DNA of 64,000 nt from an uncultured Nitrospiraceae bacterium (lineage in GTDB: Bacteria; Nitrospirota; Thermodesulfovibrionia; Thermodesulfovibrionales; Dissulfurispiraceae): NCBI GenBank assembly GCA_963727805.1, contig CAVSHF010000003.1, positions 1,984,001-2,048,000 on the forward strand, given 5' to 3'. Below the pieces are notes generated by a model, which saw only the letters and a list, made by a program, of their open reading frames with translations, ran no database searches and was not told the DNA's origin. This document shows positions 25,568 to 63,470 of this stretch, piece after piece; position 1 is the stretch's first letter; every line of letters begins with the position of its first letter. A program made the position numbers and the translations under genes.

Positions 25568-25647
25568 TGTAAACCTCCTCTTTCGCTATACAGATAGTGA
25601 TTCATTCTTTTCATTCAACGTTCTACCCCATAAATATATGCTATTTC

Positions 25648-25702
25648 AATTAAGATTTAATTAAGATTTAATTAAGATTTAATTAAGATTTAATTAAGAT
25701 TT
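25648..25702. repeat. 5 perfect tandem copies of 11-bp AATTAAGATTT
   Basis: Read directly from the sequence. Confidence 0.95.
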
Positions 25703-25812
25703 CTTCATTATTCTTTGTGACCGCAGAAAGGGACTCAACAACATGCTCCAGATGTTTTGCCTCAGACTCCGCGATTCTCGGAGCAGGGTATCTTTAATCT
25801 TCAATAAGAATA

Positions 25813-25841
25813 TAGACAATTGCTATCATATATAGTATAAT
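25813..25841 (+). promoter_or_regulatory. Sigma70 promoter of IS607 tnpA (likely leaderless mRNA)
   Basis: TAGACA-17 nt-TATAAT, ending 5 nt before ATG 25847; no SD. Confidence 0.65.
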
Positions 25842-25846
25842 AAATC

Positions 25847-26443
25847 ATGAAATTATCGACATACGCAAAGCAATTAGGCATCAGCTATCAGACGGCATGG
25901 CGGCTATTCAAAGACGGCAAGCTCAATGCCTACAAGCTGCCCACGGGGACGGTCATTGTCCGCGAAGAAGAGTCCCAGGGTTCGGAACAGGCAGTTGGCG
26001 TTTACTGTCGGGTCTCTTGTTCTGAAAACAAGAACAACCTGGAATCACAGAAGCGCCGTCTTTTGGATTACTGTGCTGCAAAGGGATACAAAGTGAGCAG
26101 GGTTATAACCGAAGTAGGGTCTGGTATCAACGACACCCGTAAGCAATGGCTGTCTTTGCTACAGGATCGGACGGTAAGGATTATCGTTGTGGAGCACAAA
26201 GACAGGTTTACGCGGTTCGGGTTCACCGGATACAAGACCCTGCTGAATGCCGATGGGCGCGACATCCAGGTAGTCAACGAAGCGGACAATGGCAAGGAGG
26301 ATCTACTTCAGGATCTGGTGGCTATTATTACCTCCTTCTGTGCCAGACTTTATGGTCAGAGACGCTGCAAGAGAAAAACGGAAAAGATCATACAGGAATT
26401 GACAGCTGGCAAGCAGCAAAGCGTGGATGGACAAGACATATAA
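25847..26443 (+). CDS. tnpA: IS607 serine transposase TnpA
   Basis: N-terminal MerR-like HTH (YAKQLGISYQTAWR); YCRVS catalytic Ser; EVGSG, VEHKDRFTRFGF, SFCARLYG. Confidence 0.95.
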   Translation: MKLSTYAKQLGISYQTAWRLFKDGKLNAYKLPTGTVIVREEESQGSEQAVGVYCRVSCSENKNNLESQKRRLLDYCAAKGYKVSRVITEVGSGINDTRKQWLSLLQDRTVRIIVVEHKDRFTRFGFTGYKTLLNADGRDIQVVNEADNGKEDLLQDLVAIITSFCARLYGQRRCKRKTEKIIQELTAGKQQSVDGQDI

Positions 26444-28586
26444 GCTAAAACATCTTGCCAACAAAGGCAAGCAGGTGAAGGTCATCCAGACGATACGGGC
26501 TTATCGGGACACTGCCAGTCTTATTGCGTGGGATCAGTGGCGTTGCTTCTATGAGTCTGCTCAACCCTTCAATAAGCAATGTGACATCAAGCGTATTGAA
26601 ACACTACTATCTGAGCGCTTCAAGCAGACCTGTCAGTATCAGGTGGTTGGGGCACTGGATTCCTTCATTACCAATAGGCAGAATGATTTTATTTTTCATG
26701 TCCATCGCAGCAGTCTTGACCAGAACAGTAAACACCGGATGTTCACTATCAACAAGTATGGGTTGTGGTACAACAAGTACCCCTTCTCTATGTTGTTTGT
26801 GGCCAAAAAAGCGAAAAAGCGTGCGCAGAGTGATGACAAAGAGTATCTATATACGATCAAGCAGGGACTTACCATCGAGTCGGATGATCTGAAACTCTCC
26901 CGTAAGATATTCAACCACATCCTGTCCAAGCACCGTAAGCCTTCGTTTCAACACATCAATATGAATCTTGATAACAAAGTGGCGGTGATTTCGGGGAAGA
27001 TCCATGGCAAGGCAAGTGCTTTTGACTACTGGGTGCGGCTTTCCACTTTGGAGAAAGGCAAGCCCGTCTACATGCCTGTGGAGTCCAATGCGTATTTCGA
27101 TGACATTGCCGGCAGGCAGAAGAAGTTCTGTCAGGTGAATCTCAACGACAAAAACGAGATATCCATAAGCTTCATCAAAGACGTACCCGATCACAAGAAT
27201 GACTATGTCCCGGCGATTGACAAGATATGCGTGGACATCGGTCTTGTCACGGCAATGGCAACTGACAAGGGAGACCGGTTTGGCAGGGACTTTATGGGTC
27301 GGCTCCTGTATTACGACAACCGCATCAGTCCGCTTGCCGCAAACAGGCAGCGCCAGGGCTTGCCGGTGCGGAGCCCGAGGTACGACCACAGAGTCTCTGA
27401 ATTGAGGGATTACCTGAAGAACGAGATCAACAGGTTGTTCAACCGTATTAAAGAGATATATCTTCCCGCAGAGATAGTCGTCGAGAAGTTGGACTTTCGT
27501 AACCTCAATCTCTCAAAGAGAATGAATCGGCTGCTGTCCCGCTTTGGCAAGTCCTGTATTGTTGCCAAATTGAAGTCGCTGGAAGAAGAATTCGGGATTG
27601 TCACCAGATATGAGAATCCCGCATACACCTCTCAGCAATGCTCAGTATGCGGGTATGTGGACAAGAATAACCGTAAGTCTCAATCTGTTTTTGAGTGTAA
27701 GTTTTGTTTGTGCTGCGAGGTTGCAAAAGAGATGAAGGAAGGCCCTTCGGAATCGGCATGCAGGTGTTGATTTCAAACCGCCTCACGCTGCTTTAGATCG
27801 AAAGACTACGGTAGTGAACGGTTGAGGAAAAGGCGTACTAGATACGTCAGGTGTGGATCAAGAAGGTGAATGTTAAGTGAACCAATGTAAGCGTCGAAAT
27901 ACATTAGATGATGTCAAAATTGGAGTCTGCAAAATGCTCCAAGATTAGCTTAGGGGAAACCTGTTTACTGCCTAAGTGACATCCGGCGTAGAGTTGGCAC
28001 GAGCTTGATTCTGGCTCTTTTGTAAAACGTAGGAACTCTTTATGTGATGCTAAGGGAAAACTTTATAAGTGGCATCCCCACGAAGGAGGAAAGTACCGAT
28101 GCACATAAAGGGGGCGGATCATCTTGTAGTACCGATGAAGCGGTGATAATAAGCCGCGGAGGGAAGGAGATGAGCCAGTCCACAGAGAGTAACTGTCAAC
28201 TGGGCAACCAGGAGGAACTATCACTCAATGTGTAGTCTTGGGTCTAAGAGGATCTTAGAAGATGGCTGGCACGAGCCGGATGATGGGAGACTATCATGTC
28301 CGGTTCTGTGAGAGGCTGGAGGTGTAATTCCTCCGGCCTACTCGGCCATAGTATCATGCATGCGGATGTGAACGCCCCGCGAAACCTCAGCAAGAGAAGT
28401 TCTCTTGTTACTGCCCTTCCACTCTACATGTCTCATGCAAATATCCTTCGTGTCCTGACAAAGAGTTTTATCGACTCTTTATCAAGCATGGAGCGAAAGT
28501 ATCACCTGCGGCATAGTGACGCAGTCAGCTTACTGTCGGCCAACCCTTATTTCTCAGGGAATCTGGCACAGCTAAAAGGGTCGTAG
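26427..28586 (+). CDS. tnpB: TnpB RNA-guided nuclease, two exons: join(26427..27707,28347..28586), 506 aa after splicing
   Basis: RuvC-I CVDIG, RuvC-II VVEKL, PAYTSQQCSVCG..FECKFC | HSIMHADVNAPRNL (RuvC-III lies in exon 2). Confidence 0.88.
27708..28346 (+). ncRNA. ORF-less group II intron (IIB, bacterial class D/RmInt1-like), 639 nt
   Basis: 5' TTGTGCTGC; DV gagccggatgatgggagactatcatgtccggttc (28273-28306, AGC triad); DVI with bulged A28340; 3' CTACTCGGC; EBS1 27929-27935 pairs IBS1 27701-27707; EBS2 27900-27905 pairs IBS2 27694-27699; DIV only ~97 nt. Confidence 0.92.
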
Positions 28587-28971
28587 TGGTCAATGAGATA
28601 TTTGACTATGAAAATTCTTACTATAAGCTTTTAACTTGAGGACAGCGTCCCAGAGGGTCATTATGCTTCTCAATCAACTGTCCAGCAAGCAGGGGGAAAG
28701 ATCTATGAGAAAATGCTGTTAAACATTCGGCTTACTCATCAAAACATGACGTGATCGGTCTGACTCGAAAAACGTTGACAAGGGGCCTCGATTAACTTCA
28801 AAAAGACGGCCTTATTTCGCCCCAAAAAAACAGAAGAATATGCCTCCAACTTTCCTTTTAAAAAGAATTTTCCCTTAAGAATTCGAAAATCTAATTAGAG
28901 GCACCGGAGTTCTCTGAGGCTAGCGCATTCTTCTTTTCTCAAATAATAAGGGAGTCCCGAAATAGCCAGAG

Positions 28972-29045: not shown

Positions 29046-29130
29046 CCCGAAAAAGGCAAACCATCCGAAATGATGGGACGCAAAGCCACGGGCCTAAATC
29101 CTGTATGGACAAGGCAGCCGGGTTGCCGGG
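29046..29130 (+). promoter_or_regulatory. c-di-GMP-I (GEMM) riboswitch
   Basis: GGCAAACCATCCGAAATGATGGGACGCAAAGCCACGGGCCTAA...GGCAGCCGGGTTGCC; P1 cccg/cggg; G20 and C92 equivalents canonical. Confidence 0.93.
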
Positions 29131-29184
29131 AGGTTAGAGCACCTCCCATGGTCTTTAATCCCCAGTGGAGTCATGGAGGTGCAT

Positions 29185-31728
29185 ATGGTAGCAGAAAGTA
29201 TCACAGGACGAAGACTAAGCAAGGTATCATTTCGTATTTGCAATCCTGTGCTGGCTCTTCTGACCGTATTGATGCTTACTTTACCGATGTCCGTTGAAAA
29301 TGCCTTTTCAGCAGTAACCCTGAACTGGACTGCTCCGAGCACGAACACAGATGGAACACCGCTGACAGACCTTTCTGGATATAATCTTTATTATGGAACT
29401 TCTTCCGGTACTTACACTAATTCAATTACTCTCACCAATGTAATAACCTATACGCTTAACAACCTCTCCAACGGCACATATTATTTTGTTGTAACTGCAT
29501 ATACAACCGCAGGATTAGAGAGTACCCCCTCGAATGAGGTTTCAAAAACGGAATCATTGCCTTCTGACACAACTCCTCCGACAGTGAACGCTTTCACTAT
29601 TCCGCCCACTGCAACGTCTTTGCCCGTATCGATCACCAGTTTTACTGCAACGGATGACGTCGGGGTGACGGGTTATCTGGTAAACGAATCCGCCACCACA
29701 CCAGCCGCTTCAGCAGCTGGATGGTCTGCAACCGCTCCCACTTCCTACACCTTCACTACCGCTGGCACCAAAACACTCTATGCCTGGGCTAAAGACGCAG
29801 CCGGTAATGTATCGACCAGTCTCAGTGCTTCGGTTACCATCACCATTGACACTACGGCTCCCACAGTGACTGGTTTCACTATTCCGGCTACTGCAACCTC
29901 TTTGACCGTATTGATCACCAGTTTAACAGCAACTGATAACATCGGAGTGACCGGTTATCTGGTAAACGAATCGGCCACGGCGCCAGCCGCTTCAGCCGCA
30001 GGATGGTCTGCAACCGCTCCCACTTCCCACACCTTCACTACCGCTGGCACCAAAACACTCTATGCCTGGGCTAAAGACGCAGCCGGTAATGTATCGACTA
30101 GCAGAACCGCAAGCACTACCATTACATTGCCCGATACAACTCCTCCGTTAGTGACAGTTTTCACTATTCCGGCTACTGCAACCTCTTTGACCGTATCGAT
30201 CACCAGTTTAACAGCAACTGATAACGTCGGAGTGACCGGTTATCTGGTAAACGAATCGGCCACGGCGCCAGCCGCTTCAGCCGCAGGATGGTCTGCAACC
30301 GCTCCCACTTCCCACACCTTCACTACCGCTGGCACCAAAACACTCTATGCCTGGGCTAAAGACGCAGCCGGTAATGTATCGACTAGCAGAACCGCAAGCA
30401 CTACCATTACATTGCCCGATACAACTCCTCCGTTAGTGACAGTTTTCACTATTCCGGCTACTGCAACCTCTTTGACCATATCGATCACCAGTTTAACAGC
30501 AACTGATAACGTCGGAGTGACCGGTTATCTGGTAAACGAATCGGCCACGGCGCCAGCCGCTTCAGCCGCAGGATGGTCTGCAACCGCTCCCACTTCCCAC
30601 ACCTTCACTACCGCTGGCACCAAAACACTCTATGCCTGGGCTAAAGACGCAGCCGGTAATGTATCGACCAGTCTCAGTGCTTCGGTTACCATCACCATTG
30701 ACACTACGGCTCCCACAGTGACTGGTTTCACTATGCCTGCCACTGCAACTTCACTCAATGTTCCGATTACCCTTTTCACCGCCACGGATAACATAGCAGT
30801 AACTGGATATATTGTTACAGAGACTGCAACTGCGCCTGCTACCTCCGCTGCAGGATGGTCTGCAACCGCCCCGACATCGCACACGACCTCTGCAGCAGGC
30901 AGCAGAACCTTCTATGCCTGGGCCAAAGATGCAGCTGGCAAAGTGTCGACAAGCATGAGCGCTACGGTTTCGATAACTGCCAAACAATCATATAGAGGTG
31001 TCTTTAGAAAAGGTATATGGTACATGGATATGAATCAAAACGGTATTTGGGATGCAAGTGCGGACACTGCTAGTCCCTTTGGAACAGCCGGAGACATACC
31101 AGTCATGGGTGATTGGGACGGCACTGGCACGAAAAAGATCGGCGTATTCAGAAACGGCATGTGGTATCTCGATATGAATGGGAATAATGCATGGGATCCG
31201 GGTGTTGATGTAGCAATTCCCTTCGGTACAGCCGGGGATATCCCCGTTGTCGGCGACTGGAATGGTGACGGAAGAACCAAGATCGGCGTCTTCAGGAACG
31301 GGATGTGGTATCTTGACTATTCTGGCACGTACCTTGCCACGGGCACATGGGCTAGCTGCGGAGCGCCTACTGATCCGACGAAAGCGGCCTGTATATCTTT
31401 CGGTGTGGCCGGTGACATCCCCGTTGTCGGCAACTGGAATGGCAGTGTAGATGGCAAGTCCGAGATCGGCGTCTTCAGAAATGGGTATTGGTACCTTGAT
31501 ACCAACGGGAATAATGCATGGGATCCGGGTGTTGATGCAGCGATTCCCTTCGGTACAGCTGAGGATATCCCTGTTGTCGGCGACTGGAATGGTGATGGAA
31601 AGACAAAGATCGGCGTCTTCAGAAATGGGTATTGGTACGTTGATACTAACGGAAATAATGCTTGGGACCCGGAGATTGATTCTGTGATGACTTGGGGAAT
31701 GGCAGGGGACAAGCCAATCGTAAAATAA
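29185..31728 (+). CDS. Secreted surface protein: FN3 domain, 5 Ig-like ~95-aa repeats, 5 FG-GAP-like C-terminal repeats
   Basis: SD GGAGG before ATG 29185; signal peptide; DTT(P/A)P..TLYAWAKDAAGNVS repeats; GDWNGDG..KIGVFRNG repeats. Confidence 0.88.
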   Translation: MVAESITGRRLSKVSFRICNPVLALLTVLMLTLPMSVENAFSAVTLNWTAPSTNTDGTPLTDLSGYNLYYGTSSGTYTNSITLTNVITYTLNNLSNGTYYFVVTAYTTAGLESTPSNEVSKTESLPSDTTPPTVNAFTIPPTATSLPVSITSFTATDDVGVTGYLVNESATTPAASAAGWSATAPTSYTFTTAGTKTLYAWAKDAAGNVSTSLSASVTITIDTTAPTVTGFTIPATATSLTVLITSLTATDNIGVTGYLVNESATAPAASAAGWSATAPTSHTFTTAGTKTLYAWAKDAAGNVSTSRTASTTITLPDTTPPLVTVFTIPATATSLTVSITSLTATDNVGVTGYLVNESATAPAASAAGWSATAPTSHTFTTAGTKTLYAWAKDAAGNVSTSRTASTTITLPDTTPPLVTVFTIPATATSLTISITSLTATDNVGVTGYLVNESATAPAASAAGWSATAPTSHTFTTAGTKTLYAWAKDAAGNVSTSLSASVTITIDTTAPTVTGFTMPATATSLNVPITLFTATDNIAVTGYIVTETATAPATSAAGWSATAPTSHTTSAAGSRTFYAWAKDAAGKVSTSMSATVSITAKQSYRGVFRKGIWYMDMNQNGIWDASADTASPFGTAGDIPVMGDWDGTGTKKIGVFRNGMWYLDMNGNNAWDPGVDVAIPFGTAGDIPVVGDWNGDGRTKIGVFRNGMWYLDYSGTYLATGTWASCGAPTDPTKAACISFGVAGDIPVVGNWNGSVDGKSEIGVFRNGYWYLDTNGNNAWDPGVDAAIPFGTAEDIPVVGDWNGDGKTKIGVFRNGYWYVDTNGNNAWDPEIDSVMTWGMAGDKPIVK

Positions 31729-41769: not shown

Positions 41770-41864
41770 CTCAAATTTTTATTATAACCCAAATCGACCT
41801 TGTGGCTGGCATAAAACGACAAGGCGATCGTTTGACTTTTTCGACGGATTTTGCGGACAATATA

Positions 41865-42040
41865 TGCTATCAGGTGCTGAAAGCTTAATAGGGAATCCCG
41901 TGAGGGCATAGAGCCCAATCCGGGAGCGGTCCCGCCGCTGTGACCGGGGACGAAAGCCGACTGAGCCACTGTCTTAATTCAGGAGACGGGAAGGCCGGTA
42001 AGTAGGATAATCCGGGAGCCAGAAGACCTGCCTGAAAATA
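41865..42040 (+). promoter_or_regulatory. Cobalamin (AdoCbl) riboswitch
   Basis: AGGTG..AATAGGGAA.CCGTGA..CCCGCCGCTGTGA..GCCACTG..GGGAAGG..GAGCCAGAAGACCTGCC (B12 box). Confidence 0.95.
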
Positions 42041-42178
42041 GAGAAGTCAGAAACCGGTATCAGTTAGCAAAGAATGAGCCTGTCGATCGCAGCCTCATTC
42101 TGTAATATTGATAACGCTTACCGATTCTGATTAACTCCTTCTCGCGGATAGAAGGTGGGGATGAAGGAAACAGGGTGC

Positions 42179-63394: not shown

Positions 63395-63470
63395 TGGTGG
63401 ACGGTAAGGGGATCGAACCCTCGGCCTCCACGTTGCGAACGTGGCGCTCTCCCAGCTGAGCTAACCGCCC
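63395..63470 (-). tRNA. tRNA-Ala (anticodon CGC)
   Basis: GGGCGGTTAGCTCAGCTGGGAGAGCGCCACGTTCGCAACGTGGAGGCCGAGGGTTCGATCCCCTTACCGTCCACCA; G3:U70; encoded CCA. Confidence 0.97.

Follow-up and report, generated by a model that had tools for sequence, protein, structure and literature searches.

A gene for a TnpB nuclease that is cut in two by a group II intron raises the question of whether splicing controls the nuclease or whether the intron is a selfish insertion in a gene that can be spared. The gene considered here belongs to an IS607-like element in the window, by which we mean the whole 64,000-nt stretch of DNA that was analysed, and the original prediction had seen in it a splicing-gated, RNA-guided nuclease of new topology. 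The predicted anatomy is borne out by the present analysis. In our judgement, the arrangement is probably the outcome of a single, recent retrohoming of the intron into one tnpB copy, that is, a one-off selfish insertion which makes this copy a leaky knock-out and does not serve as a regulated switch.

The split tnpB gene and its host element

The element (Table 1) is present in two copies in the genome (G000), of which only one holds the intron. The second copy, hereafter the twin (G000:C3:307884-305709), is 93.9% identical over 1900 nt and 97.1% identical over 279 nt, and its intact TnpB of 505 aa is 92% identical to that of the window. A serine-recombinase TnpA followed by tnpB, the arrangement that marks the IS607 family, is found here; TnpA reaches 182.5 bits on the IS607 transposase profile NF033518 (cut-off 110), and the 3' end of its gene (26443) overlaps the start of tnpB (26427). 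Both ends of both copies have a TATA core in common (25811-25814 and 28622-28625) and not the GG of characterised IS607 members, and the element is therefore named IS607-like. The right end, terminating in TACTAT, is kept in relatives, whose own ends are TAT (L071, L085-L087, L099), and the TAT(A) core of this IS607-like clade suggests an AT-rich target and TAM; a left-flank search among 41 relatives found no unoccupied target site of the element. From the left-end promoter, sense transcription of tnpA, tnpB and the intron is predicted. The two tnpB copies differ by 51 codons within residues 86-200 (window 26682-27026) and by none within residues 1-85, a pattern that is probably a mosaic with a recombined segment. 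As for the surroundings, an AT-rich 11-nt tandem repeat of 5.4 copies (25643-25702) ends ~110 nt upstream of the element, and a c-di-GMP-I (GGC) riboswitch (29046-29131) stands upstream of the gene for an 851-aa protein (29173-31728) with fibronectin-III, Ig-like and FG-GAP-like repeats. The window also contains a cobalamin riboswitch (41855-42049) and a tRNA gene (63398-63470).

The intron enters tnpB between codons 427 and 428, i.e., after the second CxxC of the zinc finger but before the RuvC-III aspartate. Its assignment to group II, already made in the original prediction, is confirmed by two Rfam models on the plus strand, group-II-D1D4-2 for domain I (27734-27852; 95.1 bits, gathering cut-off 36) and Intron_gpII for domains V-VI (RF00029; 28271-28346; 59.9 bits, gathering cut-off 40). 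No group I intron was matched by Rfam in the 64-kb window and no reverse transcriptase (RT) at the tnpB intron, in which domain IV comprises 97 nt without an ORF. The unspliced ORF (26427-27770) exists as predicted and encodes 447 aa, 427 of them TnpB residues and 20 intron-encoded, and excision of the intron yields the expected 506 aa. Since 506 aa also result from four of six other registers tried, the reading frame alone does not fix the intron ends; they are fixed by the twin, which is contiguous at exactly that point, and by ten sister introns that align end to end. Close to the junction the two copies differ at three bases (27699, 28349 and 28354), by which spliced transcripts would be distinguishable from those of the twin. 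The predicted boundaries thus proved right to the base, and the intron-free copy that had been proposed as a check was found in the same genome. Domain V, the J2/3 linker and the bulged adenosine likewise lie where they had been placed (Table 1). Five database proteins (P0017, P0019, P0022, P0024, P0026) have junction residues identical to those of the excised product, in line with the claim that excision restores the native protein.

The nuclease itself has the features by which a TnpB is recognised, the RuvC triad of D270, E353 and D434 and the zinc finger. Of 150 homologues, 145 keep D270, 143 keep E353 and 139 keep D434, and a search with the family profile found solved chains of TnpB and Cas12f. 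The NCBIfam cut-offs for TnpB are missed (NF040570, 74.9 against 100; NF038280, 25.3 against 350), and the window TnpB is a member of a divergent clade of ~500 aa. The RuvC triad is required for nuclease activity, so that the unspliced product, which is without D434 and without the last 79 residues, would be inactive; the conservation of D434 upholds the earlier statement that the third catalytic aspartate is lost without splicing. One close TnpB homologue (P0013, 432 aa) breaks after the first CxxC and continues with an unrelated tail, probably because of another insertion at a different site.

The conserved block at the right end of the element, which folds weakly (z -1.8 and -2.4), lies ~180 nt beyond the 3' end of the intron and is left whole by it. 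This block is likely the core of the omega-RNA scaffold, a role that we infer. One study, in the part available, proposes that TnpB acts in trans on the omega-RNAs of other elements (PMC10055086), and the protein of the twin could thus bypass any gate.

Table 1. Features of the IS607-like element and its intron, in window coordinates.
Feature	Position	Strand	Remark
IS607-like element	25811..28625	+	ends set by alignment to second genomic copy
sigma-70-like promoter in left end	25813..25841	+	consensus match only, 11/12
tnpA, serine-recombinase transposase, 198 aa, intact	25847..26443	+	NF033518 match; 97.5% to twin
tnpB 5' exon, codons 1-427: RuvC-I D270, RuvC-II E353, both CxxC pairs	26427..27707	+	
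IBS2, 6/6 pairs with EBS2 (one G-U)	27694..27699	+	
IBS1, 6/6 pairs with EBS1 (one G-U)	27702..27707	+	
group IIB intron without ORF, six-domain, class-D-like, 639 nt	27708..28346	+	
first in-frame intron stop, end of unspliced 447-aa product	27768..27770	+	
EBS2	27900..27905	+	register as in sister introns
EBS1 in hairpin loop	27929..27934	+	
J2/3 linker GCGGA	28114..28118	+	
domain IV without ORF, DIVa-like hairpin and remnant ribosome-binding sequence	28174..28270	+	
domain V: AGC triad, GNRA loop, AU bulge	28273..28306	+	
domain VI, bulged A at 28340 (7th from intron end)	28310..28343	+	
tnpB 3' exon, codons 428-506, RuvC-III D434; first base C presumed IBS3	28347..28586	+	
DNA block kept among related elements at right end	28528..28624	+	blastn to related loci

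Ribozyme fold and intron ends

Folded alone, the tnpB intron adopts the six-domain layout at -220.9 kcal/mol (z -6.5; MFE, 20 shuffles), and in an alignment of eight related ORF-less introns two-sided changes occur in 108 of 177 consensus pairs. With the intron's own fold as reference, 87.7% of the cells pair, compared to 74.5% in shuffled and 38-46% in slid controls, the slid comparison favouring a structure that was derived from the tnpB intron sequence; across the eight introns, 111 of the 193 pairs of this fold covary, which is above all 500 shuffles. Compared to the nearest sister (sister B), 121 base pairs are the same, 20 show a one-sided and 38 a two-sided change and 12 are broken, i.e., 58 of the 70 changed pairs remain paired. 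Judged from these comparisons, the ribozyme fold is kept through compensatory changes.

Group II introns have the consensus ends GUGYG ... AY. The ends of the tnpB intron are UUGUG ... GC, with U at position 1 (27708) and G at the penultimate position (28345), two oddities on which the original prediction was silent. According to the part of PMC4238363 that was available, few changes in RmInt1 impair the second splicing step as badly as a penultimate G, and the 3' end also varies in nature. The combination of U1 and penultimate G is also present in two unrelated introns, L023 (1501-2137) and L114 (2479-3121), and this recurrence indicates that it is not a private decay of the tnpB intron; a relative in sequencing run X4 begins with U as well. 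Penultimate G was encountered in three cases, only in U-starting introns. Strict covariation of the two positions was ruled out, as U1 is also combined with A (L174, L175) and with C (L046). The covariation is a hint that U1 and penultimate G may stand in for the G1-penultimate A interaction. The tnpB intron is probably splicing-competent at some level.

Related introns, target choice and empty sites

The genome gives 15 matches to domain V and six to RTs. Its related introns number 14, namely the tnpB intron, ten sisters, one further ORF-less intron and two that encode an RT. The sisters, all ORF-less, occupy ten different sites (L012-L021, e.g., G000:C3:611977-612614), nine of them being identical and one carrying a single change, and at 74% identity they are the nearest relatives in the genome of the tnpB intron, which is single-copy. 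The two RT introns encode a protein of 412 aa (resident RT L001), which reaches 432 bits with the TIGR04416 model and shares 63% identity with an intron RT of Bradyrhizobium. The class D label, which we take to apply to the tnpB intron and to the resident RT introns, has likeness to rhizobial introns as its observed basis, and RmInt1 and the tnpB intron are presumably kin within class D/IIB. Domain I of the tnpB intron has 66% identity with that of the resident RT intron. The sisters look chimeric: their domain I has 90% likeness to the resident RT intron, but for domains II-IVa the figure is only 58%, against 83% to the tnpB intron.

The ten fresh ORF-less copies point to a maturase acting in trans, as in T. 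elongatus (PMC2882425, available in part). The resident maturase likely also serves the tnpB intron, as suggested by the common domain IVa hairpin and by the likeness of the sisters' domains II-IVa. The DIVa-like hairpin of the tnpB intron is, we infer, likely the maturase-binding site. The tnpB intron interrupts a stop-free frame of 514 codons, whereas no frame broken by any of the other 13 related introns exceeds 143 codons; such a lone hit in a long gene is expected if insertions are lost from all genes but dispensable ones. As the nearest relative in the genome is only 74% identical and a donor copy is thus missing there, the tnpB intron may have entered the genome as part of the IS.

EBS1 and EBS2 form 12/12 pairs with the flanking exon (-6..-1 and -14..-9), and in view of this cognate pairing the intron likely retrohomed into tnpB. 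Its EBS1 would form at most two of six pairs at the other 13 intron sites, and the genome offers only three other perfect EBS-matching sites among 2132 candidates. The +1 exon base is C at the tnpB site and at all ten sister sites. The tnpB site of the twin would allow 11/12 EBS/IBS pairs, yet it is empty. The IBS target codons recur in close TnpB homologues, and a perfect match to codons conserved in the TnpB clade would fit a specialist intron too.

Searches beyond the genome returned empty sites. In a 90% protein cluster of 23 members, 14 of the 15 listed members are intact and the intron-encoded tail is found only in the window's own protein; the tail was absent from all 13 protein matches to the split region. 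A native-like motif follows in 134 of 150 distant homologues, the other 16 being unmatched by the search pattern, and among 43 TnpB loci none besides the window's own has an intron inside tnpB. A class-D-like intron piece at one TnpB locus (L079) was set aside as unrelated, being ~2.9 kb from tnpB and on the other strand. The tnpB site is empty in two genomes of the same genus (G403, G404) and in DNA runs X2, X3, X4 and X6, some of which are identical over the 78 exon bases compared, which indicates that the intron landed in a circulating tnpB allele. Relatives of the intron at 85-90% identity, met in other runs, continue into different 3' exons (e.g., in X3 and X15) and differ from it in the EBS1 loop. 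This comparison of sequencing runs covered seven of the 24 listed, all as contigs and among the matches listed, most of them with small word shares. The exact 5' junction was met in one contig, from run X1, which may be the source sample of the genome. RNA runs X15 and X16 contain joined exons, but these do not demonstrate splicing, since the joined form is present in DNA runs as well.

In metagenome contigs, a junction pattern (end of domain VI, 12 nt, HAD-x-NA codons) that detects class-D-like ends at the tnpB site only gave 17 matches, none with intron or TnpB. In viral contigs, none of the 36 matches to two intron patterns (15 and 21) fitted the intron profile, and a TnpB scan gave six candidates of which none was confirmed. 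An intron DNA search of 401 genomes of the phylum found a match in 23, the best outside G000 being 69% identical over most of its length. A second copy of the IS with its intron, or a second occupied site, was not found in any search, and the predicted hitch-hiking of the intron with IS607 therefore receives no support. Occupied sites are under-counted in such surveys, since multi-copy introns break short-read assemblies and split genes leave protein clusters.

Readings of the insertion and known systems

In the account that we consider probable, the intron RNP, with a class-D-like maturase provided in trans, would have reverse-spliced into tnpB through a chance match to its EBS. The ten sister introns at ten sites indicate that trans-mobilisation is active in the genome. 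The insertion would persist because tnpB is dispensable, the IS promoter would transcribe the intron, and a small fraction of the transcripts would be spliced to give full-length TnpB. The insertion spares tnpA and the likely omega-RNA, so that the element could remain mobile and could draw on TnpB from the other copy. The complete exon pairing, the recurrence of the target codons in close homologues and the want of a donor intron in the genome would also be expected of an intron lineage specialised on the zinc-finger codons of the TnpB clade, which spreads with the element, by retrohoming into empty copies and by riding on transposition or TnpB homing, and which entered the genome as a composite; site-specific introns in TnpB genes are indeed on record, with composite transposition left open in the portion of PMC4810608 at hand. 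Such a lineage is nevertheless unlikely, given that the twin site is empty despite 11/12 pairs, that relatives at 85-90% identity sit at other exons, and that neither the metagenome junction pattern nor the TnpB loci disclosed a second case.

A catalytically dead intron, or one orphaned for want of a compatible maturase, would make tnpB a pseudogene, and in this direction point the U1 and penultimate G, the latter harmful to the second step of RmInt1 (PMC4238363, in the part available), the low identity of domain I to the resident RT intron, and the single copy with its near-cognate site unused. We regard decay of this kind as quite unlikely, because the changed pairs with respect to sister B mostly stay paired, 38 of them by two-sided change, because covariation in the intron's own fold surpasses every shuffle, because the same ends recur in unrelated introns, and because the mobile sister B is so similar in domains II-IVa. 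Very unlikely, in turn, is the selected, conditional gate on the TnpB nuclease, tied for instance to expression of the trans-maturase. The anatomy would permit it (sense orientation, intact ribozyme, D434 lost when unspliced, exons open without stops), but there is one occupied site, TnpB from the intact twin gene would get round the gate, and the arrangement is not conserved in relatives. The conditional switch of the original prediction is thus not upheld, and we found no evidence of regulation. Just as improbable is a dependency of three elements, in which the nuclease would be made only when an ORF-less intron with U1 and penultimate G, tuned to the zinc-finger codons, is spliced by a borrowed maturase, so that retroelement expression would time transposon homing while the intron rides along.

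The topology is not new, contrary to what had been proposed: site-specific group II introns in the TnpB ORFs of cyanobacterial IS605/IS605B were described by Kapitonov, Makarova and Koonin (2016; PMC4810608, Suppl. Fig. 9), and the text available mentions many further examples at different positions. Those introns resemble the present one as sense group II introns inside tnpB with empty element copies in the same genome, but they are 2511 nt long, encode RT-maturase-HNH and lie at codon 50/51 of an IS605 TnpB, whereas the intron described here is a 639-nt ORF-less one at codon 427/428 in an IS607-like element (PMC4810608, as far as available). The TeI3 introns of Thermosynechococcus elongatus, of which family F4 resides in ISEL1 of the IS200 family, are likewise ORF-less, IS-resident and of diverged EBS, and are mobilised by a driver IEP in trans; F4, however, has three copies at a conserved site, and both the intron lineage and the family of the IS are different (Mohr et al., 2010; PMC2882425, partial text). 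RmInt1 in ISRm2011-2 of Sinorhizobium meliloti, for which splicing at 0.07% was measured, also interrupts an IS gene and has a non-consensus 3' end, but it encodes its own RT and interrupts the transposase rather than tnpB (Chillon et al., 2010; PMC3035460; PMC4238363; both in part). IStrons combine splicing, an IS607 TnpA and TnpB in one element too; there, according to the part of the preprint available (bioRxiv 10.1101/2023.11.20.567912), a group I intron makes up the element in its entirety, and splicing and omega-RNA maturation compete, in contrast to the internal group II passenger found here.

A literature search with most subscription journals outside its coverage returned no report of an ORF-less group II intron in an IS607 tnpB and none of a splicing-gated TnpB. 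The kind of nesting is already known in bacteria, and it is the combination of ORF-less intron, IS607-like host and pre-RuvC-III site that was not seen in the literature searched. As it stands, the locus is one more group II intron parked in a dispensable mobile-element gene. Its practical value is that the split gene, its intact twin, ten mobile sisters and candidate maturases occur together in a single genome, which thus offers a test system for the splicing rate, for TnpB trans-complementation and for the effect of U1/penultimate-G ends. If splicing were efficient and conditional, the locus would be a natural splicing-controlled RNA-guided nuclease. Other nested or adjacent arrangements were met among the relatives of the intron: the U-starting relative on a contig of run X4 (aligned at window 28007) lies inside another intron of the same family in a twintron-like manner, a Caballeronia plasmid (L114:2479-4813) carries an ORF-less relative followed directly by an RT intron, and a Neochlamydia plasmid (L115:707-2601) holds three ORF-less relatives head to tail.
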